Source: a bacterium (GTDB lineage Bacteria > Zhuqueibacterota > QNDG01 > CAYUAG01). Taken from it: a stretch of DNA of 64,000 nucleotides. The stretch lies in assembly GCA_046483025.1 (NCBI GenBank), contig JAWODZ010000126.1, positions 11,981 through 75,980 on the forward strand, in the 5' to 3' direction. This document shows, one piece after another, positions 8,692 to 63,415 of the stretch. A program made the position numbers and the translations under genes. Below the pieces are notes generated by a model. The model made no database searches, was not told where the DNA came from, and worked only from the letters and a program-made list of their open reading frames with translations. Position 1 is the stretch's first letter. Each line of letters starts with the position of its first letter.

Positions 8692-8871
8692 TGAGTTTTT
8701 TTGACCTGGAAAAACTAAAAAGAGTCCACTAATTACACTAATTACACGAATTTCACTAAATAGAATTAATTAATATAATTTATGAGGTTGCCGTAAGTGG
8801 AGAAAACAGAAGTTATGGGATTAATAACTTCTGTTTAATCAAAAAAAATTGAATGGATTACTGTTCGCACT

Positions 8872-10017: not shown

Positions 10018-10027
10018 AGGAGAAATA

Positions 10028-12959: not shown

Positions 12960-14267
12960 ATGAAAACAAGACATACTTGCATTATTGGTGATTCAAGAAA
13001 AATGGATGATATTAAAGATTCTTCCGTCCATTTAGTTGTAACTTCACCTCCTTATTGGCAATTGAAAGATTATGGTTCTGATGAACAAATAGGTTATTTT
13101 GATTCATATGAGGATTACATAAATAATCTTAATTTAGTATGGTTGGAGTGTTTTCGTGTTTTACACCCAGGTTGTAGATTATTGGTAAATATTGGAGATC
13201 AATTTGCTCGGGCTGTATATTATGGACGTTATAAAATAATACCAATAAGAACTGAAATTATTAAATTTTGTGAAACTATTGGTTTCGATTATATGGGTGC
13301 AATAATTTGGCAGAAAAAGACTACGATGAATACAACTGGTGGCGCAACGGTAATGGGTTCTTATCCATATCCTAGAAATGGCATTATCGAAATTGATTAT
13401 GAATTTATTTTAATTTTTAAAAAATCTGGTAAAGCTCCAAAAGTAAGTAAAAAAATAAAGGAGAAATCAAAAATAACTAAGGAAAAATGGAGAAAATATT
13501 TTTTAGGACATTGGTATTTTAATGGTGTTCGACAAAATAATCATATTGCTATGTTTCCCTTAGAATTACCTAAAAGAGCTATTGAAATGTTTACTTTTGT
13601 AGGTGATACAGTTTTAGACCCTTTTTTAGGGAGTGGAACTACATCCTTAGCAGCAATAAAGACAAATCGGAATTCTATTGGATATGAACTTAATGAGGAG
13701 TTTCTTCCTATTATTAAAGAAAAACTTAATGTAAATGAAAAGACTTTTTTTGATGATCATGATTTTGTTTTAAAACATCAAGATTATTTAAATATCAATT
13801 GGAAAAAAGAAATTCAGAAATTAAAATATATTTTTAATGATCCAATTAAGTTTAATAAAAAAATCGACCCAAATAAAATGAAATTTGGATCCAAAATTAA
13901 TATTTCTGATGGTATTAGCGGTGCAAAACGTGAAGAATATTTTTATGTAAAAAAAATTATCAAACCAAATTTGATAAAACTTTCAAATAATTTAATAATC
14001 AAATTAATTGGGGTTAAACCGTTTGAAAAGAAACAAAAAGATGCAATAAAATTTCTTGAGAATAAAATATTAAAACGACCGATTTTTTTAAAGTATGATA
14101 AAATGAAATATGATAAAGAAAATAATTTAATGGCATATGTATATATGAAAAATCGGACTTTCATTAATGCCCATTTAATAAAGAATCAATTATGTGGATT
14201 AGATGATAAATATGATTTTAAATATAAACAAAAATTTGAAACATTTATTAAAGGGGAATATAGATGA
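12960..14267 (+). CDS. beta-class N4/N6 DNA methyltransferase (SPPY then FxGxG order) with a C-terminal SNase-like extension
   Basis: Motif IV VVTSPPYW precedes motif I DPFLGSGTT. Residues about 300-435 are extra and resemble the staphylococcal nuclease fold: IKLIGVKPFE versus FRLLLVDTPE, and NLMAYVYMKNRTFINAHLIKNQLC versus [22 protein letters not shown]. Catalytic Arg/Asp positions are substituted. Lies in an AT-rich (about 27% GC) patch. Confidence 0.8.
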   Translation: MKTRHTCIIGDSRKMDDIKDSSVHLVVTSPPYWQLKDYGSDEQIGYFDSYEDYINNLNLVWLECFRVLHPGCRLLVNIGDQFARAVYYGRYKIIPIRTEIIKFCETIGFDYMGAIIWQKKTTMNTTGGATVMGSYPYPRNGIIEIDYEFILIFKKSGKAPKVSKKIKEKSKITKEKWRKYFLGHWYFNGVRQNNHIAMFPLELPKRAIEMFTFVGDTVLDPFLGSGTTSLAAIKTNRNSIGYELNEEFLPIIKEKLNVNEKTFFDDHDFVLKHQDYLNINWKKEIQKLKYIFNDPIKFNKKIDPNKMKFGSKINISDGISGAKREEYFYVKKIIKPNLIKLSNNLIIKLIGVKPFEKKQKDAIKFLENKILKRPIFLKYDKMKYDKENNLMAYVYMKNRTFINAHLIKNQLCGLDDKYDFKYKQKFETFIKGEYR

Positions 14268-14854
14268 AAACACGTGTTAAAATTAAAAATTCTGAAATTA
14301 AAGAATTACTAGGTACTAAACCAATTGAATTCCCAAAATATTCAACACAAATTATTAATTTAGCAAATCAGAATGCTCAAGGTACTAGACCTCCTGTTGT
14401 TGGTCAAATGAGTGAATTAATTCAAGAATTTACAGGGAAATCTATTTCAGAATGGGAGAAATGGTATTTAGCTAGGCATCCAGATGCTATTGATAAAGCT
14501 ACTGAAAAGATATCTGAAATGGTTGAGAAATTTTGAAATGTAATAAATGAAATTGATCGTAATATGATTGAAGATTGGGTAAAAGATTTAGTAATTATAA
14601 AAACTTTTATAGGATTAAAATTTCAAGAAGCAATTTTAAAGAAAACAGCGAATTTATTAAATACTTCATACCGTTTATCTGACTCTTTAGACGAATCTAA
14701 GGGGATCGATGGATATATAAATGATATTCCAATAAGTATCAAACCTGAAACATATAAAACTAAGAAGAGTCTCCAGGAAAAAATTGAAGTAAAATTTATA
14801 TATTATAAGAAAGTAAAAGATGGAATAAATATTGATTTAGAGGAAATAGTATAA
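14264..14854 (+). pseudogene. MTase-coupled partner ORF (candidate cognate restriction endonuclease) interrupted by a single in-frame TGA at 14534-14536
   Basis: Track ORFs 14264-14536 and 14564-14854 are in the same frame, separated only by one TGA and 9 sense codons. The ATGA overlap with the MTase stop implies translational coupling. A D...SIK segment (GIDGYINDIPISIK) is a possible PD-(D/E)xK-like motif. TGA is a genuine stop elsewhere in the window. Confidence 0.5.
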
Positions 14855-14926
14855 ATAAATAGATAATTTAATTATTAATAATCTGATTTTTTTATAATTA
14901 TAATTAAGACAAACAAAGGAGAAATT

Positions 14927-16604: not shown

Positions 16605-16695
16605 ATGTGGAAGAGGGACAAAGGAAAGAGATGAAGGAGAATGGAGGAAGGAGAAGTGAATATGGAGAATGGAAAATGGCGAAAATCCTCCTGTT

Positions 16696-16719
16696 TCCAT
16701 TTTCCCGTTTCCGTTTTCC
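16696..16719. repeat. dispersed repeat family B (TCCATTTTCCCGTTTCCGTTTTCC), copy 1
   Basis: Near-identical 24-mer at 58877-58899. Here it is the pyrimidine arm of a long purine/pyrimidine hairpin spanning 16607-16722. Confidence 0.55.
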
Positions 16720-18598: not shown

Positions 18599-18798
18599 GG
18601 GGGTGTACTTATAGCCACGGATTTACACGGATAGACATGGATTTAGGTTAGTTAATAATTCTTGAAAAAAAATACCCATGGCAAAATTACCCATTTCCCT
18701 CCCTTGAAGGGAGGGAATAAAGGGAGGGTGAGATCGGAGCAGTCACTCTCCCCGAAAGAGTAGTTACCCTTCTTTCAGAAGGTTAGCTTCTGAATTGT
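18599..18798. repeat. about 200-bp dispersed intergenic repeat (family A), copy 1
   Basis: About 90% identical to 19645-19841. It contains three tandem CACGGATnnn units and a perfect hairpin CCCTCCC-ttgaa-GGGAGGG at 18697-18715. Confidence 0.75.
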
Positions 18799-18804
18799 GC
18801 ACCA

Positions 18805-18939: not shown

Positions 18940-19173
18940 TTGAAAAAAATTTCTATGTTACAATTGCGGAAAAATTCAAAACAAATAATCCAATGGGCCC
19001 GGCAGGGGAAAAAAATGATTTTAACCTATAGGGGAAATCCTGTTTTTCGTATTGAACCTATACAGGAAAATTCACCGGATGAAAACGATTTATTTTATAG
19101 TATAGATAAGCTTGCTGTGGATGAAGGGCAAAATATAACCAACCAGAAAATGGATACAATCATTTATGAATAA
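18940..19173 (+). CDS. type II antitoxin, Phd/YefM-like
   Basis: 77 aa. TTG start with RBS AAAGGAG 7 nt upstream. Overlaps the downstream PIN toxin by 8 nt (ATGAATAA). Confidence 0.65.
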   Translation: MKKISMLQLRKNSKQIIQWARQGKKMILTYRGNPVFRIEPIQENSPDENDLFYSIDKLAVDEGQNITNQKMDTIIYE

Positions 19174-19579
19174 AAATATATTTATTGATACCAGCGGTTA
19201 TTATGCTTTACTTATAAATCAGGATAATGCCCATAGAAAAGCAGTAGATATTTTACATGAAGCAGCTGAGGAGAAAATTCAATTTATAACTTCAGATTAT
19301 ATTCTTGATGAGATTGCTACCTTACTTCAATTTCGAGGAGTCGGGCACTTACTTCCTGAATTTTTTAAAAGAGTTTTCAACTCTCAGGCGTGTAGAATTG
19401 AATGGATGGACGAAGAACTGTTTCAGCAAACTAAATTATTTTTTTTCAAAAATAGTGATCATAAATATTCATTCACGGATTGTTTTAGTTTTATATTGAT
19501 GCAAAGAAACGGATTGGAAAAAGCATTGACCAAAGATCATCATTTCCGGGAAGCTGGATTTATTTCTCTTTTGAGTTAA
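19166..19579 (+). CDS. vapC: type II toxin VapC (PIN domain ribonuclease)
   Basis: 137 aa. N-terminal IFIDTSGYYALL with Asp7, and later D/E acidic residues typical of the PIN fold. Confidence 0.75.
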   Translation: MNKNIFIDTSGYYALLINQDNAHRKAVDILHEAAEEKIQFITSDYILDEIATLLQFRGVGHLLPEFFKRVFNSQACRIEWMDEELFQQTKLFFFKNSDHKYSFTDCFSFILMQRNGLEKALTKDHHFREAGFISLLS

Positions 19580-19594: not shown

Positions 19595-19648
19595 CCTCCT
19601 GAAGGTTTCGAATCCTTCATTTCATTCAGGACAGGCTCTTCAGGGGGG
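19595..19648. repeat. REP-like hairpin element (family C), copy 2, directly abutting repeat A copy 2
   Basis: cctcctgaaggtttcgaatccttcatttcattcaggacaggctcttcagggggg versus the copy at 5923-5969. Confidence 0.6.
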
Positions 19649-19841
19649 TGTACTTTTAGCCACGGATTTACACGGATAGACACGGATTTGGGTTGGTAAA
19701 TAACTCTTGAAAAAATTATTCATTGCAAATCACCCATTTCCCTCCCTCGAAGGGAGGAAATAAAGGGAGGGTGAGATCTGAGCAGTCACTCTCCCCGAAA
19801 GTGAAGCTACCCTTCTCTCATAAGGTTAGCTTCTGAATTGT
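19645..19841. repeat. about 200-bp dispersed intergenic repeat (family A), copy 2
   Basis: Aligned with 18599-18798 over its whole length: same CACGGAT triplet and same CCCTCCC..GGGAGG hairpin. Confidence 0.75.
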
Positions 19842-19926
19842 CCACCTAAACTTAAAAAAAATTTATAAAAATTGCTGAAAAATTTGTATCTTTATGATAA
19901 AAGGTTATTAATTAAAAAAGGCATAT

Positions 19927-21677: not shown

Positions 21678-21785
21678 GTTCGGTTAAGGTTCAGGGTTCA
21701 AAGGTTCAGAGTTCAGGGTTGGAAGGTTAATAATCAACATATATCCTGAATTTTAAACCCGGAACTCAGAACTCTGAAATTTGAA
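21677..21785. repeat. short tandem repeat (GGTTCAG-type heptamers) plus complementary CTGAA-rich arm forming an imperfect long hairpin
   Basis: aggttcggttaaggttcagggttcaaaggttcagagttcagggttgg, then ...cctgaattttaaacccggaactcagaactctgaaatttgaa. TTCAGAGTTC pairs with GAACTCTGAA. Confidence 0.6.
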
Positions 21786-31933: not shown

Positions 31934-33847
31934 ATGAAATCAAAATATAAAAAAAGTCCCTATAACATATTCCAGTTTTTTAAAAATGTTCTGGATGCTA
32001 TGGCTGATCTGGTTTATATAGTTAACAAAGACAGAGAGATACAGTATATCAATCCTGCCATGAAAAAAGTATTCGGCTCCAAAGATGGTAAAAAATGCTA
32101 TGAATACCTTTCAGATTTATCGATGACCTGCCCCTGGTGCAGTCATGAAAATGTATTAGATGGTCATACCATTCGCAGGGAGTGGTATTGTCAAAAAAAA
32201 GATAGAATCTATGATGTAATTGAAACTCCTTTACATAATGAGAATGGTCAGGTTTTCAAGCTAAAAATTATGCGTGATATCACAGATCTAAAGAGATGGG
32301 AACAAAAACTTCAGAATGAGAGAGATTTATTGAAAAATATCATGGAAAACACCCATTCCATGATGGCATATCTGGATAAAGATTTTAATTTTATTCATGT
32401 CAATACAGCTTATGCAGAAGGTTCGGGTTATTCAGTTAAAGAGCTAATCGGCAGAAATCATTTTGATTTATTTCCCAATCAAGAGAATTATGCAATATTT
32501 AAAAAAGTCAGAGATACCGGCAACTCAATCGGGTTAAAAGATAAACCTTTTACATTTGCCCATCAACCGGAAAGAGGTGTTACGTACTGGAACTGGACAC
32601 TCAATCCCATAACAAATTCAGCTGGGGATACAGAGAATCTGGTTTTAACGCTGGAAGAAACCACCAAACGAAAAAGAATTGAAAATAAACTCAAGGAAAG
32701 TGAGGCCAGGTATAAACTTGCCCAAAAAGCTGCCCATATTGGTACCTGGGATTGGGATATCAAAACAGGCAAGCTTGTCTGGTCTGAAGAAGTTGAAACC
32801 TTGTTTGGGTTGCAAACCGGAGAGTTTAAAAATGATTATAAAGAATTTGTCAAACTAATCCATCCTGAGGACAGAGAGAAGGTTCAGTCAGCAATTGACA
32901 GATGCATTGAAGTAAAAGAAGATTATGATGTAGAACACCGTATAATCTGGCCGGATGGATCAATTCACTGGTTGAGAGAAATGGGGAATGTTATTTGTGA
33001 TGAAAAACAATTGGCAGTACGTATGCTGGGAATTGTTCAGGATATCACTGAACAAAAGGAAGCCCGAGAAATATTGGAAAACACCAGAGAGCAGTTGGAG
33101 CGAGGTGTAAAAAAGCGAACCGAAGAGCTGGAAAAACTCAATACAATATTACAGCAGGAAATTGCAGAACGTAAAAATTATCAAGAACAGCTCCACTCTT
33201 TAATGTCTCGTATGACAAAGATGGAAGAACAGGCGCGCAGAAGAATTGCCACCGGATTACATGATCGCATTGTTCAATCTTTGGCCCTGACCAAAATCAA
33301 ACTGGAGAAGATCATTGATAATAATGAGGATATAAAACTGAAAGACACCTTAGAAGAGATTCATCAGCTTGTGGATCAAAATATTAATGAGACCCGTTCC
33401 TTAACTTTTGAAATAAGTCCGCCTATACTGTATGAAATGGGTTTGGTATCGGCTATTGAATGGCTTGCAGATAAGATGAGCAAAAAGCACGATCTTGATA
33501 TTACTGTTAAAAACGATGGTGAATTCACATCCATGGATGATAATATACGCAATATTCTTTTTCAAACCGTTCAGGAATTACTGAATAACATTCAAGAACA
33601 TGCCGGAGCCAGCCAGGCAGAAATACAGATAGCAGAAGAAGAGGATAATATTGTAATTCAGATTAAAGATAACGGAGTTGGTTTTAAGGTATCGGAAGTA
33701 AAACCGGATATGTCCCGTTTGACCGGCTTTGGGCTTTTCAATATTAAAGAACGACTGAAATATGTAAAGGGTCAGTGCAGGATTACATCCGGGAAGAATC
33801 AAGGTACAACTGTTGTTATTAAAGCCCCCTGGAAAAAGAATAATTGA
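31934..33847 (+). CDS. PAS-domain sensor histidine kinase (HisKA_3 / NarL-type), copy 1
   Basis: Two or three PAS/PAC modules, coiled-coil linker, H-box HDRIVQSLA and HATPase_c (GFGL..). Paralogous to 55773-58067. Confidence 0.85.
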   Translation: MKSKYKKSPYNIFQFFKNVLDAMADLVYIVNKDREIQYINPAMKKVFGSKDGKKCYEYLSDLSMTCPWCSHENVLDGHTIRREWYCQKKDRIYDVIETPLHNENGQVFKLKIMRDITDLKRWEQKLQNERDLLKNIMENTHSMMAYLDKDFNFIHVNTAYAEGSGYSVKELIGRNHFDLFPNQENYAIFKKVRDTGNSIGLKDKPFTFAHQPERGVTYWNWTLNPITNSAGDTENLVLTLEETTKRKRIENKLKESEARYKLAQKAAHIGTWDWDIKTGKLVWSEEVETLFGLQTGEFKNDYKEFVKLIHPEDREKVQSAIDRCIEVKEDYDVEHRIIWPDGSIHWLREMGNVICDEKQLAVRMLGIVQDITEQKEAREILENTREQLERGVKKRTEELEKLNTILQQEIAERKNYQEQLHSLMSRMTKMEEQARRRIATGLHDRIVQSLALTKIKLEKIIDNNEDIKLKDTLEEIHQLVDQNINETRSLTFEISPPILYEMGLVSAIEWLADKMSKKHDLDITVKNDGEFTSMDDNIRNILFQTVQELLNNIQEHAGASQAEIQIAEEEDNIVIQIKDNGVGFKVSEVKPDMSRLTGFGLFNIKERLKYVKGQCRITSGKNQGTTVVIKAPWKKNN

Positions 33848-34605: not shown

Positions 34606-34622
34606 ATAGGGAATTTCCCTAT
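34606..34622. promoter_or_regulatory. 17-bp perfect palindrome ATAGGGAA-T-TTCCCTAT, 34 bp upstream of the second regulator gene
   Basis: Seen directly: 8-bp arms around a central T. Size and symmetry fit a LuxR/GerE-type dimer operator. Confidence 0.5.
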
Positions 34623-34655
34623 TGTATCTCTCTCCCAATATTTTTTTCTTAGGTT

Positions 34656-37018: not shown

Positions 37019-37876
37019 ATGATGAGTAAAAATGTTTACGACATGAGCGATATTGATGTGGCCTGGTGTCCGGGATGTGGTAATTTTACTATCTGGAAAG
37101 TGTTAAGGGAAACACTTTCGGAGATGAGCATAAAACCCCAGGAAGTAGTGATTGTATCCGGTATTGGTCAGGCAGCTAAGATGCCTCATTATTTACGCTG
37201 CAATGTATTTAACGGCTTGCACGGCAGAGCTTTACCTCCGGCTGTTGGTATAAAGTCAGTTAATCCTGAACTTACCGTAATTGCAGAAAGCGGAGACGGA
37301 GATATGTATGGTGAAGGAGGTAATCATTTTATGCACACCATCAGAAGAAATCCCAATATTACCAATCTTGTGCATAACAATATGGTTTACGGCTTGACCA
37401 AAGGCCAGGCTTCTCCCACCAGCCAGTCGGGATTTGTGACCCCGATACAGGTTGACGGTGTTACTCTGAAGCCTTTTAATCCGCTTGTGGTGGCAATTGC
37501 CCTGGATGCATCTTTTGTAGCCCGAACCAGCACCGTGGATACCGAGAAATTCAAGATGATCCTGAAAGAGGCAATAGAGCATCCCGGATATGCCCTAATT
37601 GATATTTTTCAACCCTGTGTTTCCTTTAACAAAGTCAATACCTACAAATGGTTCAAGGAAAACACCTATTATCTGGAAGAAAAGTATGATCCGAGGAACA
37701 AGGTTGAAGCCTTTACCCGGGCTTCGGAAACAGAAAAATTTCCTTTGGGAATTCTCTATAAAAATACTGATAAAAAGAGCTTTGAGCAAAGTCTGACAGT
37801 ATATCAGAAAGATAAAAGTCCTGTTATAAACAGATCCTTTAACCTGGAAAAGTTAGAGGAATTTATGAATAAGTAG
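37019..37876 (+). CDS. korB: 2-oxoacid:ferredoxin oxidoreductase beta subunit (TPP-binding)
   Basis: CPGCGNF motif at the N-terminus, TPP-binding GDG..Y region. An alternative ATG at 37022 has better SD spacing. Confidence 0.85.
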
Positions 37877-37914
37877 AATTTAGGATTGTAGAATGAATCT
37901 AAAGAATTAGGGAT

Positions 37915-37975
37915 TAGTGTCGCTGTCGCAATTGATTCCGATAGCGATTGCGATCCTGATACCGATAGTGATGAA
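37915..37975. repeat. hexamer-periodic GATnnn tract (intergenic)
   Basis: gtcgctgtcgcaattgattccgatagcgattgcgatcctgataccgatagtgatgaa. Confidence 0.55.
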
Positions 37976-38020
37976 AATTTAAAATTATTAATTGTAATAA
38001 TGATAAGAAAGGAGAAGAAG

Positions 38021-38245
38021 ATGAAAGTAACAATTGACAGAGATGAATGCACTATGTGTGCTTTATGTTGGGAAACCTGCCCGGATTTTTTTGAAGAAAG
38101 TCAGGAGGATGGGATGAGCCAAATAGTAGCAGAATACAGGGATAACGGTAATGTTGATCAGGGTGAAGCTCCTGAATCCTTGTATGATTGTGTAACTGAA
38201 GCAGCAGAAGAATGCCCGGTGGAGATTATTCACATTGAAGAATGA
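38021..38245 (+). CDS. small single-cluster ferredoxin
   Basis: CxxCxxCxxxCP (CTMCALCWETCP) plus a distal CP (EECP). SD aggagaag precedes the ATG at 38021; the track ORF starts at 38000. Confidence 0.75.
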   Translation: MKVTIDRDECTMCALCWETCPDFFEESQEDGMSQIVAEYRDNGNVDQGEAPESLYDCVTEAAEECPVEIIHIEE

Positions 38246-38313
38246 GCAGGTTAATACTAATACCGCGATAATGATTTATAATCAATCAATTAGACATAAG
38301 GGAGGAAGAAAAA

Positions 38314-38709
38314 ATGAAAAATTTAGGTGAACATATTCAGCAAGCAGATTGGAAAACAGAAAAACATGTACCAGTCATTGAATGTTCGGATAAGGTGAAA
38401 GCGGAAGAAGTATTCGAGGTAAAAGTAGGATTGGGTAAGGAAGTGGCACATCCCAATACTACTGAGCATCATATTCGCTGGATCAGTCTTTATTTTTATC
38501 CGGAAGGTGATAAGTTTCCTTATGAAGTCGGTCATTTTGAATTCAATTCTCATGGAGAAGCTGTAAAAGGGGCTAATGAAGGACCGGTTTATACCCACCA
38601 TCAGGTTGGAGTCAATATGAAAGTTACCAAATCCGGGACTTTGCATGCTCTGGCTTTATGTAATATTCACGGACTCTGGGAAAACAGTAAAGATATTGAG
38701 ATTGGTTAA
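38314..38709 (+). CDS. sor: superoxide reductase (neelaredoxin/desulfoferrodoxin centre II type, 1Fe-SOR)
   Basis: EKHVPV motif with the E-K pair, His ligands, and CNxHGxW (CNIHGLW). Confidence 0.85.
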   Translation: MKNLGEHIQQADWKTEKHVPVIECSDKVKAEEVFEVKVGLGKEVAHPNTTEHHIRWISLYFYPEGDKFPYEVGHFEFNSHGEAVKGANEGPVYTHHQVGVNMKVTKSGTLHALALCNIHGLWENSKDIEIG

Positions 38710-38738
38710 AGGGTCGGGGAAAATTTTTGGGGATTAAT

Positions 38739-38789
38739 GATAGTGATGTCGAATACGATATCGATACCGATACCGATACCGAAAGTGAG
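38739..38789. repeat. hexamer-periodic GATnnn / CGATAC tandem tract (intergenic)
   Basis: gatagtgatgtcgaatacgatatcgataccgataccgataccgaaagtgag. Confidence 0.55.
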
Positions 38790-38825
38790 GAAAAGATAAA
38801 GAAGTAATATTACATATATTAATTT

Positions 38826-39851
38826 ATGGAGGCAATAATGATTGATATAAGTACTCAGTATATGGGAATAGAATTAAAAAATCCTGTCATTGTCGGAGCC
38901 AGTAGTTTGACATCGGATATGGAAACCATAAAACACATTGAAAAAGCCGGTGCTGGTGCTCTTGTGACCAAATCTCTTTTTGAAGAGCAGATTCAGCTGG
39001 AACGATATAAAATGGATGAGGACCGGGAGAAGTACAGCTATCGTAATGCGGAAATGATTACGGTTTTTCCGGAACAGGAACATGCGGGGCCCAAAGAACA
39101 TCTCTACTGGGTTGAGAAAACCAAGGAAAGTCTTTCAATTCCTGTAATTGCCAGCTTGAATGCAGTACATAAAGAAACCTGGATTGAATATGCCAAACTC
39201 CTGGAAGAGACCGGTGTGGATGCCCTGGAATTGAACTTTTATGCTTCTCCCAAAGAATTCAAAAAAGATGCGGAATCCATTGAAAAAGAACAGATCTCCA
39301 TAATAAAAAAGATCAAAGCAAAAGTTTCGATTCCGGTATCAGTGAAGCTGAGTTTTTTCTATACCAATCCTCTTCATTTCATTTCTCACATTGATAAAAT
39401 TAATGTTGACGGACTGGTATTATTCAATCGGTTTTTCCAGCCTGATATAGATGTATACAAACAAAAACACATTTCCCCTTTTCTTCTAAGTGAACGATCA
39501 GACAACCGTTTGCCTTTGAAATTTACCGGATTATTATCAGAGAATATCAAAGCAGATATTTGCAGCAGTACCGGACTCATCGAGGGTGAAGATGTGGTTA
39601 AAATGATCCTGGCTGGTGCAGCTTCAGTTCAGGTAGTGAGCACCCTGTACAAAAATGGTATTGATTATATCAGTAAGATATTAGAAAATTTACAATTCTG
39701 GATGGAACAGAAAGGATATACTGCCTTAAATGATTTTCGGGGAAAGATGAATAAGAAAAACAGTACTGATCCTTGGGTGTATATGCGTTCTCAGTATATA
39801 AAATTGTTGATGAATCCCAAAGATTTATTGGATAATTATCCTGTACCTTAA
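38826..39851 (+). CDS. dihydroorotate dehydrogenase-like TIM-barrel flavoprotein
   Basis: MGIELKNPVIVGAS N-terminus and overall PyrD class-1-like layout. The catalytic Cys position reads NFYASP rather than NxSCPN, so function is uncertain. Confidence 0.6.
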   Translation: MEAIMIDISTQYMGIELKNPVIVGASSLTSDMETIKHIEKAGAGALVTKSLFEEQIQLERYKMDEDREKYSYRNAEMITVFPEQEHAGPKEHLYWVEKTKESLSIPVIASLNAVHKETWIEYAKLLEETGVDALELNFYASPKEFKKDAESIEKEQISIIKKIKAKVSIPVSVKLSFFYTNPLHFISHIDKINVDGLVLFNRFFQPDIDVYKQKHISPFLLSERSDNRLPLKFTGLLSENIKADICSSTGLIEGEDVVKMILAGAASVQVVSTLYKNGIDYISKILENLQFWMEQKGYTALNDFRGKMNKKNSTDPWVYMRSQYIKLLMNPKDLLDNYPVP

Positions 39852-39866
39852 TCAAGGAGGGTTCTC

Positions 39867-40373
39867 ATGAAGGTTGCAATTTTATTGGAAAATCAGTATC
39901 AGGTTTTGGAAGTATGGTATCCCTTCCTCCGGTTTCGGGAAGAAGGCATAGAAACGGTTCTGGTGGGAACCGATAAAACAAATTACCTGAGTAAGGAAGG
40001 TTATCCGGCACAGGAAACAATTCCTGTTAAAAAGGCCAGGTCCAAAGATTTCGAGGGAGTAATTGTTCCGGGCGGGTATGCCCCTGATTACCTGCGCCGG
40101 CATGCAGAAATCAATCAATTTGTAAAAAATATATTCGAGTCCGGAAAACTGACAGCTGCTATCTGTCACGGCGGATGGGTACTGGTTTCAGCCGGGATAT
40201 TAAAGAAAAAAAGAGTTACCTCATTTATGGCCATTAAAGATGATATGATCAATGCCGGGGCAGAATATCTGGATCAGGAAGTAGTGGTTGATAATAATCT
40301 TATTACTTCCAGGAATCCTTATGATCTTCCTGCTTTTTGTAGGGAAATCATTTCCTTTTTAAAATCAGGGTAA
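39867..40373 (+). CDS. DJ-1/PfpI family protein
   Basis: Nucleophile elbow AICHGGWVL. 168 aa. Confidence 0.8.
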   Translation: MKVAILLENQYQVLEVWYPFLRFREEGIETVLVGTDKTNYLSKEGYPAQETIPVKKARSKDFEGVIVPGGYAPDYLRRHAEINQFVKNIFESGKLTAAICHGGWVLVSAGILKKKRVTSFMAIKDDMINAGAEYLDQEVVVDNNLITSRNPYDLPAFCREIISFLKSG

Positions 40374-40379
40374 AAGTGA

Positions 40380-41051
40380 ATGAAAGAGAGAATCATCAAG
40401 TACAAAGGCAGGGATATTGACGTCTATTTTACGGTTGATCGCTGTACCCATGTTGCTGAGTGTATCCGGGGTTCCCCGGACGTATTTAATGCGGGCAGAC
40501 GTCCCTGGATTATGGCTGATGCTGCAGAATCCGATAAAGTAGCAGAAGTAATTCAACGTTGTCCTACCGGAGCTTTACATTTTAAAAGAAAAAACGGAGG
40601 ATCAGAGGAGGCGGTTCCTGCTGAGAATGCAGTTCGAATTTGTCGGCATGGCCCTCTGTACCTGAAAGGTGATCTGAAGCTGAAAAATTTTGACGGATCA
40701 TCGATTTTAACAGATACCCGTATTGCTCTGTGTCGGTGCGGTGAATCCCGGATAATGCCTATTTGTGATAAAAGTCATGCTTTTACCGGGTTCCGGGACA
40801 AGGGAACATTTGCTCGAGGAAAAATACAGCAGAATTCAGACCAGGGATCACTTACTGTTACTCTCACAAAAAATGGACCTCTTCTCCTGCAGGGACCGGT
40901 GGAAATACTGGATCCGGAAGGTGAACTATGCTTTAAAGGAAAAACTGTTACCCTGTGCCGTTGCGGTCAGTCTCAGAATATGCCTTTCTGCGACGGAACA
41001 CATGTAAAGGCAGGTTTTAAAACCAAAAAAGATGTTGTGTTACATCATTAA
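40380..41051 (+). CDS. iron-sulfur protein: divergent 4Fe-4S mono-cluster domain plus two CDGSH-type [2Fe-2S] domains
   Basis: N-terminal C..C..C...CP-like CTHVAEC...RCPTGAL. Two CDGSH motifs: CRCGESRIMPICDKSH and CRCGQSQNMPFCDGTH. Confidence 0.8.
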   Translation: MKERIIKYKGRDIDVYFTVDRCTHVAECIRGSPDVFNAGRRPWIMADAAESDKVAEVIQRCPTGALHFKRKNGGSEEAVPAENAVRICRHGPLYLKGDLKLKNFDGSSILTDTRIALCRCGESRIMPICDKSHAFTGFRDKGTFARGKIQQNSDQGSLTVTLTKNGPLLLQGPVEILDPEGELCFKGKTVTLCRCGQSQNMPFCDGTHVKAGFKTKKDVVLHH

Positions 41052-41067
41052 ATAAGGAGTTTGAAAA

Positions 41068-42234
41068 ATGGCAACAGATCCTATTTGCGGTATGAAAGTA
41101 GATGAAAAGCATGGATTAAAACTCACTCATGAAGGTAAAACCTACTATTTCTGCAGCCAGCATTGTATGGAAAAATTTATTGAAGAAAACCAGATAACCG
41201 GAGTTCAATGTACTGAATGCGGTCCGGAAGCAAAGCAGCCTTTTTACCGCAATAAGCTGTTTATTGTTGTTTCCGCATTAGCAGTACTGTCGTTATTGTC
41301 TTTTTGGATTCCTTTTCTACAAGCCTTCCGCAGAGAATTATTCGACTATTTCCGAATGATCTGGTGGGCAATTCTGCTGGGGCTGGTTCTTGGAGGTGTG
41401 ATCGATTATTTTATTCCCAGAGAGTATGTCTCCCATGTACTTGCCCGGCCCTCCAAACGAACCATTGTTTATTCCGTATTTGTGGGATTTCTCATGAGTG
41501 CCTGTTCCCACGGAATACTGGCCCTTGCCATTCAGCTTTATAAAAAGGGAGCTTCGGTGCCGGCAGTGGTGGCCTTTCTCTTGGCCAGTCCCTGGGCAAA
41601 TATGACTCTGACTATTATGCTTATTGGTCTTTTCGGACTCAAAGCTCTCTTCATTATCCTCTCTGCCATTGTAGTCGCAATTATTACCGGACTGATATTT
41701 CAGGTTCTGGAAAAGGCAAAGCGGGTGGAAACCAATCCTCATTCAATTCCTTTTGATGAAAAATTTTCCATTGTGCAGGACATTAAAAAAAGAGTAAGAC
41801 AAACCAAGCTAACCTCTTCTACAGTGGGAGAAGCTTTCAAAGGGATTTTTCAGGGGATAGTCAGCCTGAGCAATATGGTTCTGTGGTGGATTCTGATTGG
41901 TATGGGGCTGGCGAGTTTGGCCGGAGCCTATGTTCCCAGTTCTTTTTTTGTGAACTATATGGGCCCTACCATTGCGGGACTTCTGATTACTCTGGCTTTT
42001 GCTACTATTATTGAAATATGTTCCGAAGGCTCGGCTCCCATGGCTTTCGAGATTTTCAAACAAACTGCCGCCTTTGGCAACAGTTTTGTGTTTCTTATGG
42101 CTGGTGTGGTTACTGATTACACCGAGATCGGACTGTTATGGCATAATGTAGGGAAGAAAACCGCAATTATGCTTCCAGTGATCACAGTTCCTCAGGTGAT
42201 CTTACTCGGTATGCTGGCTAACTGGCTGTTTTAG
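41068..42234 (+). CDS. YHS/TRASH metal-binding domain fused to a DUF318-type permease
   Basis: N-terminal DPICGMKVDEK...YYFCSQHCMEKF (YHS), then a second Cys cluster CTECGPE, then about 8 TM helices with an EICSEGSAP motif. Confidence 0.7.
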   Translation: MATDPICGMKVDEKHGLKLTHEGKTYYFCSQHCMEKFIEENQITGVQCTECGPEAKQPFYRNKLFIVVSALAVLSLLSFWIPFLQAFRRELFDYFRMIWWAILLGLVLGGVIDYFIPREYVSHVLARPSKRTIVYSVFVGFLMSACSHGILALAIQLYKKGASVPAVVAFLLASPWANMTLTIMLIGLFGLKALFIILSAIVVAIITGLIFQVLEKAKRVETNPHSIPFDEKFSIVQDIKKRVRQTKLTSSTVGEAFKGIFQGIVSLSNMVLWWILIGMGLASLAGAYVPSSFFVNYMGPTIAGLLITLAFATIIEICSEGSAPMAFEIFKQTAAFGNSFVFLMAGVVTDYTEIGLLWHNVGKKTAIMLPVITVPQVILLGMLANWLF

Positions 42235-42261
42235 ACATCTAAGATGGAAAATCCTTGCTAT

Positions 42262-42298
42262 TCGGAATCGACATTGGATTGGTAATCGAAATCGAAGG
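42262..42298. repeat. hexamer-periodic CGAnnn tract (intergenic)
   Basis: tcggaatcgacattggattggtaatcgaaatcgaagg. Confidence 0.45.
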
Positions 42299-46880: not shown

Positions 46881-47084
46881 ATGTTCGGAGGAATGATTAT
46901 TATCTGGATTTTTATAGTTGTAGGAGTTATCTGGTTGATCAGATATTTGACTGAACAAAAAAATATGAAAAATAATGAAATGGAAAAAGAAACCAGCGCC
47001 CTGGATATATTGAAAATACAATATGCCAAGGGTGAGATCAACAGAGAAGAGTTCAAGAAACGTAAAAAAGATTTAGAAAATTAA
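46881..47084 (+). CDS. SHOCT-domain small membrane protein (copy 1)
   Basis: One TM, then ALDILKIQYAKGEINREEFKKRKKDL, the SHOCT signature. Confidence 0.7.
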   Translation: MFGGMIIIWIFIVVGVIWLIRYLTEQKNMKNNEMEKETSALDILKIQYAKGEINREEFKKRKKDLEN

Positions 47085-47088
47085 AAAA

Positions 47089-47340
47089 TTGAAAGGAGTG
47101 AAAATTATGCATGACTGGGGAATGATGAACTGGGGCTGGGGCGGTATGATTGTTCAATTGCTTTTCTGGATAGTTATTATTGTTGCTATTATCTGGGCAA
47201 TCAGGCATTTTACCGGACCTGGTCGAAGTGATGGATCTGCTTCCGGCAGTGAATCGGCTCTGGATGTACTGAAAAAACGTTACGCCAGCGGAGAGATCGA
47301 CAAACAAGAATTTGAAGAAAAGAAAAGGGATATTTTATGA
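47089..47340 (+). CDS. SHOCT-domain small membrane protein (copy 2)
   Basis: W/G-rich N-terminus, one TM, ALDVLKKRYASGEIDKQEFEEKKRDIL. An alternative start at 47107 is possible. Confidence 0.7.
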   Translation: MKGVKIMHDWGMMNWGWGGMIVQLLFWIVIIVAIIWAIRHFTGPGRSDGSASGSESALDVLKKRYASGEIDKQEFEEKKRDIL

Positions 47341-47779: not shown

Positions 47780-48016
47780 ATGCACGGATGGGAGTTTATG
47801 CACTGGGGCTGGTTTGGTTTTATTGTGCAGATTATTTTCTGGGTAGCAATCATACTGCTTATAGTATGGGTGGCAAAGAAAGTCACAGAGTCAGGTTCCG
47901 GAGATCGATCTTCTTCTGCGGGAGAATCAGCCCTGGACATTTTGAAAAAAAGATATGCCAAGGGAGAGATTGACAAAGATGAGTATGAAAAAAAGAAAAA
48001 GGACTTGACTGCATGA
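47780..48016 (+). CDS. SHOCT-domain small membrane protein (copy 3)
   Basis: MHGWEFMHWGW.. TM, then ALDILKKRYAKGEIDKDEYEKKKKDL. Confidence 0.7.
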   Translation: MHGWEFMHWGWFGFIVQIIFWVAIILLIVWVAKKVTESGSGDRSSSAGESALDILKKRYAKGEIDKDEYEKKKKDLTA

Positions 48017-55772: not shown

Positions 55773-58067
55773 TTGAAATTAAACAAAAAAAAATTATATA
55801 CTCCGGAATTGATTGCTGCCATAATTGAAACTATCCGTGGGGCTCTCGTTATTTTAGATGAGGATCTCCGGGTTGTTCATGCAAATCAGTCTTTTTACAG
55901 CACGTTTAAAGTAAATCCTGAGGAAACGGAATCCTGTCTTCTATATGAAATAGGAAACAACCAATGGAATATTCCTAAGTTACGTGAAATCCTGGAGAAG
56001 ATACTTCCCCCAAAAAAAACTATGATGGATTTTCTGGTGGAACATGATTTTCCTCATATTGGCTACCGTATTATGAAGCTGAATGCCATACAGATTACCA
56101 GCAAAGAGAACAGGATGCCGCTGATTCTTTTGGTAATTGAAGATATAACGGACAGAAAAAATAAAGAAAGAGAACTTTATAGTTCCAGAAATCTGCTGCA
56201 ATCAATCATAGATCATGCCGGCTCTATGCTGGCCTATCTGGATAGGGATTTTAATTATGTTTATGTGAATAGACTTTATGCTGAGAACCTGGGATATACT
56301 ATAAAAGAACTGGTAGGACAAAACCACTTTAATCTGTTTAAAAAAACAGAAAATTATAAGGTGTTTAATAAAGTAAGGGAAACAGGAGAAACTGTTTACC
56401 TGCAGGATAGGATAAATCCCTTTATTCGGAATGTAAAAGAAATAAAATATTATAACTTTATTCTGTCTGCGGTTAAAAACAGTAAGGGTAAGGTGAAAGG
56501 TCTGATTTTAACTCTTATGGATACTACCCGGAGAAAAGAATATGAAGATAGCCTTGATGCCAGTGAGAAACGATATAAACTGGCCCAAAAGATGGGTGGG
56601 ATCGGCACCTGGGAGTGGAACATTGAAACCAATAAACTCACCTGGTCGAAGGAGGTTTCCCGGCTCTATGGATTAAAAAAAATTCCCTCAAACTTGACCT
56701 ATAAGGGTTTTCTCAGAATGGTTCATCATGAAGACAGAAGAGAAGTGGAACTGGCTGTGAACCGGTGTATTGAGGAGGAACAAGAATATAATGTGGATCA
56801 CCGTATCCGGTTACCTGATGGTTCCATTCACTGGCTGAGAGAAAAAGGGAATGTGGTGCGGAATAAAAACAAAATGGCTGAGAGAATGCTGGGCGTAGTA
56901 ATGGATATTACCAGCGAAAAGAAAGCAGCTTTGGAGAAAGCCAGGCTGGCTGCTATTGTAAACACCTCTACCGATGCAATTTTGCTCTATAGTTCCCGGG
57001 GTATTCTCATTCACTGGAATTCCGGGGCTCGTCTGGTGTTTGGATATTCGGAAAAGGAGATGGTGGGTAAATCTATTTTCAGATTGGTGCCGGAGAGAAA
57101 GATGGATGAGTTGAATAAAATATTAAAACAGACCCGAGAAGGCAAATCCATCCGATATCTGGAAACCATCCGGAAAAGAAAAGATGGTAAAGAAATTCAT
57201 ATTGCCCTTACTGTAACTCCCATTCGGAATGAGAAGGGAAAAGTCAGTGCCATCTCTACTGTTGAGCGGGATATTTCACATCGCAAGGAGGTGGAAGCAA
57301 AATCCAGAAAACAGCACCAGGAACTGGAGATACGGGTAAAGCAACGAACTGAGGATCTTGCCCGGAGTCGGGACAAGTTGCAGCAGGAAGTGGAAGAACG
57401 TCGTCATTATCAGAAAGAGCTTCAGTCATTGGCTTCTGGTATTTCTCTGGTTGAAGAAAGAGAACGTCGTAAAATAGCTACTTATTTACATGATCAGGTA
57501 GTTCAAAATCTGGTATATTCAAATTTAAAACTGGGTCAACTGGGTCAGATGAAGGTAAATACATCTCAGAAAAATATTTTGAAGGAAGTCTCAAAATATA
57601 TCCGGGAAACTATTGGTGATCTGCGAAACCTGACTTTTGAAATCAGTCCTCCCATTCTCTATGAACTGGGATTTATAAAAGCAGTGGAATGGCTGGCTCA
57701 GCAGTATCAGGAACAATGGAAAATATCAGTTGAAGTAAAATCTACCTCTCTTTCTGTTCCTCTTGATGAAACAAAGCGGGTAGTTTTATTTCAAAGTGTA
57801 CGGGAATGTCTGAACAACATATGTAAACATGCTCAGTCTGAGAAAAATAAAATTTTTATCCGAGAACAAAAAAATAACCTCGAAGTTGAAATAGTGGATG
57901 ATGGTGAGGGTTTTAATCCGGAAGAAGTAAAATTATCCAGTGCTTCAGCACATGGATTCGGCCTGATCAATATACGGGAAAGACTGGAATATTTGAGTGG
58001 TTCCCTGGAAATTCAATCCCAGCCGGGACAAGGAACCCGAATACGGATGCGGATTCCAATTAATTAA
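55773..58067 (+). CDS. PAS-domain sensor histidine kinase (HisKA_3 / NarL-type), copy 2
   Basis: Paralogous to 31934-33847 (for example MLAYLDRDFNYVYVNRLYAE... versus MMAYLDKDFNFIHVNTAYAE...) with one extra PAS module. H-box HDQVVQNLV. TTG start per the track. Confidence 0.85.
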   Translation: MKLNKKKLYTPELIAAIIETIRGALVILDEDLRVVHANQSFYSTFKVNPEETESCLLYEIGNNQWNIPKLREILEKILPPKKTMMDFLVEHDFPHIGYRIMKLNAIQITSKENRMPLILLVIEDITDRKNKERELYSSRNLLQSIIDHAGSMLAYLDRDFNYVYVNRLYAENLGYTIKELVGQNHFNLFKKTENYKVFNKVRETGETVYLQDRINPFIRNVKEIKYYNFILSAVKNSKGKVKGLILTLMDTTRRKEYEDSLDASEKRYKLAQKMGGIGTWEWNIETNKLTWSKEVSRLYGLKKIPSNLTYKGFLRMVHHEDRREVELAVNRCIEEEQEYNVDHRIRLPDGSIHWLREKGNVVRNKNKMAERMLGVVMDITSEKKAALEKARLAAIVNTSTDAILLYSSRGILIHWNSGARLVFGYSEKEMVGKSIFRLVPERKMDELNKILKQTREGKSIRYLETIRKRKDGKEIHIALTVTPIRNEKGKVSAISTVERDISHRKEVEAKSRKQHQELEIRVKQRTEDLARSRDKLQQEVEERRHYQKELQSLASGISLVEERERRKIATYLHDQVVQNLVYSNLKLGQLGQMKVNTSQKNILKEVSKYIRETIGDLRNLTFEISPPILYELGFIKAVEWLAQQYQEQWKISVEVKSTSLSVPLDETKRVVLFQSVRECLNNICKHAQSEKNKIFIREQKNNLEVEIVDDGEGFNPEEVKLSSASAHGFGLINIRERLEYLSGSLEIQSQPGQGTRIRMRIPIN

Positions 58068-58090
58068 AATTAAAAAGAAAGGAAAGACTG

Positions 58091-58741
58091 ATGTCAATCA
58101 AGGTACTACTGGCAGAAGATCATCATATTATGCGTCAGGGCCTTCGCAGTTTATTAGAGGATCAATCCAATATAACTGTTGTGGGGGAAGCAAAAGACGG
58201 CCGGGAGACCATACAATTAGCCGGCAAGTTTAAACCTGATGTAATTGTTATGGATATAAGTATGCCTAACCTTAATGGAATGGAAGCTACTTACCAGATA
58301 CTGGAAGAACTCCCTGACGTAAAAATTATTGGATTATCGGTCCACTCTGATGAACAGTTCATTTCCGGGATGTTTCGGGCTGGAGCCTGCGGTTATCTGC
58401 TCAAAGATTGTGTAATAGATGAATTGATGAACGCTATTGATACAGTAGTACGAGATCAAATTTATATCAGCCCCTCTATTTCCAAACAGGTTATCAAGGA
58501 TTACCGACAATATCTTAAAAAAGATAAGGATTCCGTTTTTGAATTATTAACCGAGCGGGAACGAGAAGTGCTGCAGCTTATAGCAGAAGGCAAGTCCACC
58601 AAAGAGATTGCCGGTACTCTTTATGTCAGTGAAAAGACTGTAGCCACTCATCGACAGAATATGATGAACAAACTTGATATTTACAGTGTTCCAGAATTGG
58701 TGAAATATGCTATTAAAGAAGGGCTGATTTCCCTGAAATGA
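58091..58741 (+). CDS. LuxR/NarL-family response regulator, copy 2
   Basis: REC plus GerE HTH. About 60% identical to 33860-34507. Confidence 0.9.
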   Translation: MSIKVLLAEDHHIMRQGLRSLLEDQSNITVVGEAKDGRETIQLAGKFKPDVIVMDISMPNLNGMEATYQILEELPDVKIIGLSVHSDEQFISGMFRAGACGYLLKDCVIDELMNAIDTVVRDQIYISPSISKQVIKDYRQYLKKDKDSVFELLTEREREVLQLIAEGKSTKEIAGTLYVSEKTVATHRQNMMNKLDIYSVPELVKYAIKEGLISLK

Positions 58742-58876
58742 TTTCTAAAACACCCTCTCTTTTATCTCTCCCTTCGGCGAGCTCAGGAAAGGCCCTCAAG
58801 GGGGCATTCGTATTACTATTTCTTTCCCCTTGAGGGGAGATGTCCGCTGAAGGCGGACAGAGGGGTGTTTTTCCCT

Positions 58877-58899
58877 CCATTTTCCGTTACCCCGTTTCC
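58877..58899. repeat. dispersed repeat family B, copy 2, inside a 400-bp structured intergenic region
   Basis: tccattttccgttaccccgtttcc versus 16696-16719. Confidence 0.55.
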
Positions 58900-58977
58900 T
58901 TCCCCTAAACAGCGTCAACTTCAGAGTACTGTCTTCCGGCCTCTGAACGCTAATCCTCTCACGTTCTAATGCTCTCA

Positions 58978-59022
58978 GGTTCTTAAGTTCTTGTATCTTG
59001 ATTCTTGAGTCTTGAGTCTTCC
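58978..59022. repeat. tandem 7-8-bp repeat (TCTTGAG-like, 6 units)
   Basis: ttcttaagttcttgtatcttgattcttgagtcttgagtcttcc. Confidence 0.6.
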
Positions 59023-59141
59023 TTTTTCCATATCAGACTTTCTGAAGTCAATTATCAGAAACTTCCTGATTGAATTTTTCTTTTAAAATCAATACTTATA
59101 AGTATACTATAGGTTATTGATAAAAAGAAAATGGAAAAGAT

Positions 59142-59747
59142 ATGCCCAAAATTAAAATTTTAGTTGCTGATGATCATGAGATTGTACGTAAGGGGCTCCG
59201 GGAACTGATTAATCAGCAATCTGATATGGAAGTAGTATCTGAGGCAAAGGATGGAGAGGATGCGGTTCGTATGGTCCGTCAATATGCTCCAGATGTTGTG
59301 TTAATGGATGTGGTCATGCCCAACACCAATGGAATCGAGGCAACAAAAGAGATCAAATCTCAATTTCCACAAACCCGTATTATAGCCCTCTCTATTTATG
59401 CTGATCGTTCTTATGTTATTCAGATGTTCAAAATGGGGGTGTCGGGATATTTGCTCAAGGAAAGTGCTTTTAATGAATTGATTAAGGCTATTCGAAAAGC
59501 TCTTAATAATCAGGTTCATCTCAGTTATTTACTTTTTAAAGGAGTTTATCTGGAATTTCAATCTCTCATGCAGAAAGATACAGATCACAATGTACAAATA
59601 TTAAATCAAAGAGAGCAGACAGTTTTAAAGGAATTATCCGATGCGAATTCCATGAAAGAAATTGGGGAAAGAATGAATACCTCGGTTGATAGTATTGAGT
59701 CAGTGATTGAGAGTATTTTAAATAAGTGGATGTTAATTAACAGATAA
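59142..59747 (+). CDS. REC-domain protein with degenerate LuxR-type C-terminus (third member of triad 2)
   Basis: ILVADDHEIVRKGL...VLMDVVMP. C-terminal helix-turn-helix-like EIGERMNTSVDSIESVIESILNKW. Confidence 0.7.
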   Translation: MPKIKILVADDHEIVRKGLRELINQQSDMEVVSEAKDGEDAVRMVRQYAPDVVLMDVVMPNTNGIEATKEIKSQFPQTRIIALSIYADRSYVIQMFKMGVSGYLLKESAFNELIKAIRKALNNQVHLSYLLFKGVYLEFQSLMQKDTDHNVQILNQREQTVLKELSDANSMKEIGERMNTSVDSIESVIESILNKWMLINR

Positions 59748-62830: not shown

Positions 62831-63415
62831 ATGCAAGTACCGTTAGAAATATCCTACAGAAAGGTAGAAAAAACAGAAAAAATTGAAAACCTTATCCGGC
62901 AAAAAGCAGGGTCACTGGAACAGGCTCATAATCATATCACATCCTGCCGGGTAGCAGTGGAAAAACCCCAGCAGCATCAAAGCAGAGGAAATCCTTACCG
63001 GGTGAGAATTGATCTTACCGTACCACCCGGGCATGAGATTGTAGTCAAACAGGAACCTTCAAAAGGCATTTTACATCGAGGATTGGATGCTGTGATAAGA
63101 AAAGCTTTTTCATCTGCGCGCAGACAGCTGAAAAAACTGGACCAGCGCCAAAGAGGAAAGGTTAAAGCACATCCTGCGGAAACAGAGAATCAGGGTATTG
63201 TCAAACGTATTTTTCCGGAACGTGGCTATGGTTTCTTGAGAACCCTGGATGGACGAGATGTTTATTTTAATAGAAACAGCGTAATACATAACGATTTTGA
63301 TCGGTTGGAAGTCGGCACTGTAGTCCGCTATAGTGAAGAAATGGGAATCAAGGGGCCTCAGGCGAGCACTGTACAAATCGTGGATAAACCGGGTTCTCGG
63401 ATATCGGAGTTGTAA
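62831..63415 (+). CDS. ribosome hibernation factor (HPF/RaiA, S30AE domain) fused to a C-terminal cold-shock domain
   Basis: Residues 1-110 match the HPF pattern (I.I.....V..TE.I...I..K...LE......I....V.V....Q.........V.I.L.VPG.E.V..........L..A.D....K......QLKK). Residues about 125-190 have the CSD motifs RGYGFL and VYFN. Confidence 0.65.
   Translation: MQVPLEISYRKVEKTEKIENLIRQKAGSLEQAHNHITSCRVAVEKPQQHQSRGNPYRVRIDLTVPPGHEIVVKQEPSKGILHRGLDAVIRKAFSSARRQLKKLDQRQRGKVKAHPAETENQGIVKRIFPERGYGFLRTLDGRDVYFNRNSVIHNDFDRLEVGTVVRYSEEMGIKGPQASTVQIVDKPGSRISEL

Follow-up and report, generated by a model that had tools for sequence, protein, structure and literature searches.

The DNA analyzed here is a 64,000-nt window of an uncultured bacterium (contig JAWODZ010000126.1 of assembly GCA_046483025.1, positions 11,981 to 75,980 of the forward strand), and our subject is a set of short repeat arrays, built from contiguous 6-nt units (hexads), which lie between the genes of a redox operon. 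The host is probably a reductive tricarboxylic acid (TCA) cycle anaerobe of the FCB group (Fibrobacterota-Chlorobiota-Bacteroidota) and stands nearest to KSB1, whose members supply the closest named matches to LepA at ~70% identity; aconitases and ATP-citrate-lyase-like proteins are encoded elsewhere in the window, and relatives carry type IX secretion system (T9SS) tail domains. According to Pfam, the operon runs from a PAS histidine kinase through two receiver-GerE response regulators, KorA and KorB to the first array (T1), which is followed by a Fer4_15 ferredoxin, a desulfoferrodoxin-type SOR and the second array (T2). Beyond T2 lie genes for a DHO_dh-like protein (DHOD-like), a DJ-1/PfpI protein, a CDGSH protein and a YHS-ArsP permease, then a third tract (T3) and an RseC-like protein (Table 1). 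The Pfam matches bear out the names korB, SOR and YHS-permease given in an earlier reading made from the letters alone (the sequence-only reading). T1 to T3 denote the tracts of the window, and T4 a further site known from relatives.

Phased hexad arrays and their conservation

T1 comprises seven GAT triplets in a row, spaced exactly 6 nt apart (37934-37975), and ends ~50 nt before the ferredoxin start. The T2 units read GAT, GAT, GAA, GAT, GAT, GAT, GAT, GAA and GAG in order from 38739 to 38792, with a period-6 array of 95% matches, (CGATAC)3, called within them by Tandem Repeats Finder (TRF). The leader between T2 and the DHOD-like gene holds both the palindrome GTAATATTAC and a Shine-Dalgarno site. 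The sequence-only reading had described three tracts of strict 6-bp GAT periodicity, a description that fits T1 and T2 but not T3, which carries no phased GAT on the + strand, where it is of the complement type (AAUCGA)n. The prefix gtcgct-gtcgca-attgat, previously counted as part of T1, is likewise not phased for GAT and serves as the 5' arm of a hairpin.

T1 and T2 are real arrays and not a compositional effect. When trinucleotides of any kind were sought in five or more repeats at periods of 4-12, T1 and T2 were the only period-6 arrays of the 64-kb window, with none in mononucleotide shuffles, and they were also the only sites with YGA in five of six phased units (shuffles 0). Phased CpG in at least four of six units was found at T1, T2 and T3 only, and in none of 10 dinucleotide-preserving shuffles; the CpG observed/expected ratio of the window is 0.66. 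Outside the clade, retrieved bacterial and archaeal loci totaling 1.7 Mb gave a single match to phased CGAW (at least four of five units), and this lay within a gene, which speaks against composition as the source of the arrays. The proposal of the sequence-only reading that the tracts are specific to the operon is supported, the arrays being restricted to this operon in the window and in ~60 kb from relatives. A SOR-anchored genome scan yielded 80 loci from unrelated phyla, none with arrays, SOR being too widespread to serve as a lineage anchor. Rfam gave no match at gathering score in the window and one chance-level match (E 1.4) in 37850-38860, and a full-text literature search found no description of phased GAU or hexanucleotide intergenic elements.

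When viral contigs were searched with the pattern (YGATNN)5YGAT, 94 of the 128 matches listed lay, in the Asp frame, within open reading frames (ORFs) of at least 100 codons, mostly perfect GAT-rich microsatellites. Since the listed viral matches are mostly Asp-X coding repeats, a generic (YGATNN)n scan is not specific for the element. Two viral contigs (L144, ~10453, and L152, ~737, both on the − strand) contain non-coding arrays with heterogeneous spacers (GCGATGTCGATATCGATATCGATATCGATGTCGATGTCGAT; TTCGATTCCGATTTTGATTTCGATTCCGATTTTGATTTCGAT) that resemble it.

Over 74 units from the window and its relatives, the consensus counts were Y 73, G 71, A 72, T 59 (A 9) and W 63, followed by a free sixth position (A 9, C 23, G 25, T 17). 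Positions 1-4 are thereby 80-99% conserved, and the unit is better written YGATWN than GATNNN.

A comparison of orthologous intergenic regions, as the sequence-only reading had suggested, revealed arrays at equivalent sites in relatives. These syntenic loci (given L-numbers) were found via SOR homologues and a KorB-anchored metagenome scan, and their KorA proteins are 74-85% identical among lineages. Two operon types occur: type A (window, L082 and L083), with the two-component system and a korB-ferredoxin gap containing T1, and type B (L216, L226, L295 and L087), in which T1 is absent because korB overlaps the ferredoxin gene. In the T1 orthologues of L082 (5582-5623) and L083 (4828-4863), the aligned GAT columns are invariant, while the spacers differ and the flanks are unalignable. 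An array precedes the DHOD-like gene (the T2 site) in every syntenic lineage, with nine units in the window and L216, six to seven in L082, L083 and L226, ~5 intact units in L295 and a 4-unit relic in L087. The T4 array precedes a second ferredoxin gene in L082, L216, L226 and L295; in L087, this gene appears from its sequence to be disrupted (9835-10171), and the T4 array likewise appears to be lost, a joint decay that counts in favor of the element. T3 has no orthologue to compare, as the gene junction after the permease differs in relatives. We also noted that the DJ-1 gene of L082 is reduced to a 39-residue remnant (7684-7840).

The distance from array to start codon is 24-90 nt across copies, and the intergenic stretch 5' of the array ranges from 30 to ~700 nt; this 5' variability shows that the arrays travel with the downstream gene. 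The T2 array is 67-85% identical to that of the window in relatives and the leader 3' of it 55-88%, with the flank from the SOR stop to T2 at 39-53%, the level of unrelated sequence. Taken together, T2 and its leader reach 67-88% between lineages, beside 67-74% for SOR third codon positions. By alignment, the leaders of L216, L226 and L082 reach 76-88%, beside 73-74% at the third codon positions of SOR (58-74% among lineages). Selection acts on the nucleotide sequence of the arrays, which gain and lose whole units as they evolve; the indels within them measure 6 nt (L226 T2) and 24 nt (L082 T4). The phased-repeat element is real, conserved, restricted to one clade and one operon, and absent from Rfam.

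Table 1. Features of the window discussed in the text, with positions numbered from its first letter.
Feature	Position	Strand	Sequence or remark
T1 5' arm	37910..37934	+	GG-G-AUUAG-U-GUCGC-U-GUCGC-A-AUUG; pairs with first T1 units
T1 array, 7 hexads	37933..37975	+	TGATTC CGATAG CGATTG CGATCC TGATAC CGATAG TGATGA
T2 array, 9 hexads	38738..38792	+	TGATAG TGATGT CGAATA CGATAT CGATAC CGATAC CGATAC CGAAAG TGAGGA
Leader 3' of T2, up to DHOD-like start codon	38793..38838	+	AAAGATAAAGAAGTAATATTACATATATTAATTTATGGAGGCAATA; conserved
T3, weaker array of YGATWN unit	42259..42298	-	CGATTT CGATTA CCAATC CAATGT CGATTC CGAATA
PAS histidine kinase gene	31934-33847		
19-bp palindrome	34606-34624		AATAGGGAATTTCCCTATT
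Fer4_15 ferredoxin gene	38023-38245		
SOR gene	38314-38709		
DHO_dh-like gene	38839-39851		
Tandem array, intergenic	8727-8759		CACTAATTA x3.7
N6/N4 DNA methylase gene	12960-14926		
Intercistronic hairpin	16636-16719		Arms of 7-nt tandem repeats GGAGAAU.../...UUUCCAU; z -2.0
~200-nt element, first copy	18599-18803		Begins with three 10-nt repeats (CACGGATTTA)
PIN-toxin gene	19166-19579		
~200-nt element, second copy	19644-19846		Begins with the same type of three 10-nt repeats
Intercistronic hairpin	21682-21780		Arms of 7-nt tandem repeats GGUUCAG.../...CUGAACU; z -3.3
Small membrane-protein ORFs (three)	46881-47084, 47089-47340, 47780-48016		67-83 aa; common C-terminal tail ...SALDILKKRYAKGEIDK.E.EKKKKDL
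Second histidine kinase and two-response-regulator module	55773-59747		Paralogous
7/8-nt TCTTGAG-type repeats	58950-59020		
S30AE and cold-shock fusion protein gene	62831-63415		194 aa

A proposed sense-RNA leader element and rival explanations

We read T1, T2 and T4 as putative copies of one clade-restricted cis-acting element, each with 4-9 contiguous hexads Y-G-A-U-W-N in strict 6-nt register, lying 24-90 nt 5' of the start codon of a redox gene. The genes so served would be two Fer4_15 ferredoxins and the DHO_dh-like protein, all inside the KorAB-ferredoxin-SOR operon. The explanation we favor, to which we give about as much credence as doubt, is that these copies are a sense-RNA leader element controlling the downstream cistron. 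Such an element would act in the sense mRNA and set the expression of that cistron relative to the cistrons upstream.

The evidence for the RNA strand comes from three tracts that fold. Window T1 (37900-37985) reaches -24.8 kcal/mol (z -3.9; equaled by none of 200 shuffles), compared with -14.8 for the minus strand, in a hairpin of 20 pairs of which four are G.U. The T1 of L083 reaches -18.3 kcal/mol (z -3.3; antisense -11.6) and its T2 -31.6 kcal/mol (z -3.7; antisense -27.9). The stems of all three are ~20 bp long, and the + strand folds better by 4-10 kcal/mol. At symmetric positions, these stems contain 12 G.U pairs versus one A.C mismatch; given that neutral decay of an inverted DNA repeat should yield the two equally, this imbalance points to sense RNA. 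The best evidence for the sense-RNA reading is the 5' arm of window T1, where the motif is gone from the arm's own strand (CGAC, CAAT) and pairing is kept through G.U. The earlier suggestion of an RNA-level element thus gains some direct support from the pairing and strand bias of these tracts.

Two mechanisms could be envisaged for a leader of this kind. The array may serve, in single-stranded and phased form, as a platform on which each subunit of an oligomeric RNA-binding factor takes one YGAU, as in TRAP, or it may be a pairing module for a partner of the type (AUCR)n. In the three folding tracts, this partner would be local, as the 5' arm, and may hide the array or give rise to a hairpin that serves processing or stability. 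A narrower version of the platform mechanism holds that an undescribed RNA-binding regulator, oligomeric as a ring or helix, docks on the arrays as RNA and reads one YGAU per subunit at a 6-nt pitch, which we consider doubtful in this specific form. If true, such a regulator would tune the synthesis of ferredoxins and redox enzymes in an operon for oxidative stress and 2-oxoglutarate:ferredoxin oxidoreductase, playing a part analogous to that of TRAP in an uncultured lineage of the FCB group.

Several observations weigh against a sense-RNA leader. With three of 13 tracts folding, the G.U evidence rests on few and partly related cases, and the G has been lost in three to four units of the L295 T2 array, so that the constraint is not absolute. 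The unit lies on the other strand in T3 and in the L083 5' arms, which a DNA-level reader could tolerate, and the block conserved from array to start codon is as expected of one that contains a promoter. Simple occlusion of the ribosome is excluded given that the arrays end ~50 nt from the Shine-Dalgarno site. Finally, among the ~50 window ORFs scanned with Pfam, no RNA-binding domain was seen bar that of a fusion protein, and neither a binding protein nor a partner RNA for the arrays was identified. The fusion protein in question shows Pfam matches to Ribosomal_S30AE (a hibernation factor) and a cold-shock domain (CSD).

Two candidates connected with an RNA role were set aside. An ANTAR or other RNA-binding response regulator was ruled out, both response regulators consisting of a receiver and a GerE/LuxR helix-turn-helix domain. 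Long-range pairing between T2 and T3 was also rejected; T3 was the best duplex partner of T2 among ~1,190 windows (z -4.3), but in relatives the top partners, of similar z (-3.5 to -4.2), fall in random coding sequence, so that the T2-T3 pairing does not rise over the extreme-value background.

The main and serious rival, which we hold to be a minority possibility of real weight, is that the arrays are DNA-level operators. The ferredoxin and DHOD-like genes would then have internal promoters at which an oligomerizing protein, repressor or activator, recognizes contiguous hexads whatever their orientation. A setting among genes for oxidative stress and iron-sulfur proteins, like that seen here, is typical of Fur/PerR regulons. 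The occurrence of the unit on both strands and the conserved block up to the start codon, set against a neutral 5' flank of widely varying length, would suit such operators. Arrays of non-helical period are, moreover, established operators for Fur (PMC7536154) and for omega (PMC9499535), which leaves little force in the earlier argument that a 6-bp phase, by not matching the DNA helical repeat, speaks against a DNA function. Against this rival, the units are not Fur hexamers, and a Fur box was rejected on sequence, with two of 87 units fitting NAT[AT]AT and a best 19-mer match of 11-12/19, compared with 49 other window positions that score at least 13. No recognizable -35/-10 lies at a fixed distance from the arrays, whose own distance to the start codon varies. 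In a consensus scan, promoter-like matches were at background level (28 versus 23.6 expected; the lineage's own promoter type may differ), and no intrinsic-terminator-like site was found between the genes flanking the arrays; both consensus scans carry little information. The T1 5' arm, with its motif gone and its pairing retained through G.U, also fits poorly with a DNA-binding protein as the reader, and neither a Fur nor a ribbon-helix-helix (RHH) gene was found in the window.

A further point against DNA operators is that the main regulatory region of the operon has no array and instead has an ordinary palindrome of 19 bp, located in the 148-nt gap 5' of the second response regulator and korA. 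This palindrome is kept in L082 (~2262-2280; AATAGGGGATTTCCCTATT) and L083 (~1508-1526). It resembles an operator at which the LuxR-type response regulator of the operon would bind, and it has no relation to the YGAT arrays.

A less probable alternative is that the function lies in the hairpin, as an intercistronic mRNA stabilizer or RNase III-type processing site, and that arrays lacking a 5' arm are decaying remnants. The three ~20-bp stems with significant z-scores agree with this, as does the presence of two other repeat-built intercistronic hairpins in the window, found between HD-domain, aconitase and ATP-citrate-lyase genes; the genome seems prone to structures of this kind. However, the remaining 10 of 13 arrays, window T2 (z -0.5) among them, fold without significance (z -1.9 to +1.3; the folding left aside the two L295 arrays), which makes the hairpin an accessory rather than a common feature. 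YGAU is kept in the T2 of lineages that have no arm at all, the hairpin is not conserved between orthologues (window T1 folds, L082 T1 does not), and no U-tract follows any of the hairpins. On these grounds, we regard a hairpin function by itself as improbable.

Still less credit is due to the view that the arrays are functionless hexanucleotide microsatellites produced by replication slippage, one of the two origins put forward in the sequence-only reading. Slippage does contribute, as indicated by orthologue indels in multiples of 6, and the TRF call in T2 and the erosion of the T2 arrays in L295 and L087 also agree with this view, but the arrays are not mere microsatellites. Slippage predicts uniform decay over the six positions, whereas YGAT is 80-99% fixed and position 6 free; divergence is slower in the arrays than in the flank beside them, and the same three sites are kept across lineages. 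A comparison of contigs showed no length polymorphism, with unit number constant in each of three groups of near-identical contigs from independent samples (window/L081; L083/L084/L085/L086/L215; and L216/L297/L298/L299, the last with one single-nucleotide difference and no indel). A purely neutral origin is accordingly very improbable.

The arrays are not translated, as the sequence-only reading had held. Read in the GAT frame, 73 of 74 units have a pyrimidine as the last base of the spacer codon, and four-fold families show a Y:R ratio of 28:1, where genes of the window have 52% Y (P 2e-7). The base before GAT is C in 69% of units, compared with 7% for the Asp codons of genes. The +1 frame (Ile-x) would place the invariant G at third positions, and the +2 frame meets TGA in 30% of units. 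Third-position constraint contradicts every frame. The further statement that start codons are lacking and stops intervene is correct for T1 as to the start (no ATG, GTG or TTG), but no stop interrupts its GAT frame, which stays open as far as the ferredoxin ORF, and the T2 frame does have a TTG (38727) and a TAA (38805). That the arrays encode small peptides, the GAT frame giving an acidic (D-x)n and the +1 frame, which has an ATG in T2, a hydrophobic (I-x)n, is barely credible: the T2 frame from TTG to TAA gives 26 codons, several window/L216/L295 differences in its tail EEKIKK are synonymous, and the +1 frame yields MIVMSNTISIPIPIPKVRKR* with an ATG in four lineages, but that ATG is expected by chance wherever a spacer begins with G, synonymous sites are constrained in each frame, no array is preceded by the GGAGG Shine-Dalgarno of real genes here, the GAT frames of window T1 and of L082, L083 and L216 T2 have no start codon, and the frame is broken by a 1-nt indel in the tail of L226 and by loss of the stop in L082. 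A hairpin-only function, a neutral microsatellite and a peptide are each less likely than either a sense-RNA leader or a DNA operator.

Other repeats and genes in the window

The window contains further repeats and small genes (Table 1). Two copies of a ~200-nt element, 92% identical and 1,044 nt apart, bracket a PIN-toxin gene and a small ORF before it. A short tandem array lies in another intergenic region, and TCTTGAG-type repeats lie in the 400-nt gap of a second, paralogous two-component module. Three small membrane-protein ORFs share a C-terminal tail, which we take to resemble the SHOCT domain. The N6/N4 DNA methylase gene is followed by ~660 nt without an ORF of at least 110 aa, and the region may be a restriction-modification remnant.

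Comparison with known phased-repeat systems

Few phased short-repeat regulatory sites are well characterized, namely those of TRAP and HutP, the Fur hexamers and the omega heptads, and in these an oligomeric protein reads the repeats. The element described here adds a clean conserved signature, consisting of a fixed tetranucleotide in strict 6-nt register that changes by whole-unit indels and stands before electron-carrier genes, although its reach is limited, the element being found so far in one operon of one small clade. The signature supplies a defined bait, (CGAUAC)n, for finding the factor, and would allow differential expression among the genes of one operon to be put to the test.

Intercistronic stem-loops of the repetitive extragenic palindromic (REP) type stabilize upstream mRNA. 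Like these, the arrays lie between cistrons of one operon, and three tracts take hairpin form; unlike them, they are not dispersed in the sequence compared, most copies are unfolded, and the conserved feature is a phased tetranucleotide and not a palindrome.

The omega protein (ParB/RHH) of pSM19035 binds at least four contiguous 7-bp heptads in mixed orientations (PMC9499535). Its sites resemble the arrays in being gapless short repeats (7-10 for omega), direct or inverted, with a minimum contiguous number needed in the case of omega. An omega/RHH operator was nonetheless rejected, as it requires at least four contiguous 7-bp (A/T)ATCAC(A/T) units, compared with the period of 6 and the YGATWN unit seen here, and the omega context is plasmid partition and copy control. 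Fur, in turn, binds arrays of at least three GATAAT hexamers, "regardless of orientation and number" (PMC7536154), and its arrays share with ours contiguous 6-bp units starting GAT(A/T) near genes for iron and oxidative-stress proteins. They differ at positions 5-6, which are N and Y (mostly C) here and not A and T, and in being AT-rich rather than having phased CpG; the G.U pattern in the present arrays favors RNA.

A further close parallel in organization is TRAP, which reads 11 (G/U)AG repeats with 2-3-nt spacers, one repeat for each subunit of the ring (PMC3913778), and whose Bacillus sites lie in the trp leader, trpG and trpP. The motif here is YGAU and not (G/U)AG, with U as the third base of the triplet in 80% and G in 4% of the units, and the spacing is strictly 6 nt versus 5-6 in TRAP sites. 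The arrays also end ~50 nt before the Shine-Dalgarno site without a terminator or antiterminator partner, the host belongs to the FCB group and is not a Firmicute, and no Pfam match to a TRAP-family gene (TrpBP/MtrB) was present among the ~50 window ORFs. In common with TRAP sites, the arrays combine short conserved motifs with non-conserved spacers in an mRNA leader or intercistronic position, have a similar number of repeats (9-11 for TRAP versus 7-9 here), and hold their GAU triplets apart by constant 3-nt spacers, compared with the 2-3 nt of TRAP.

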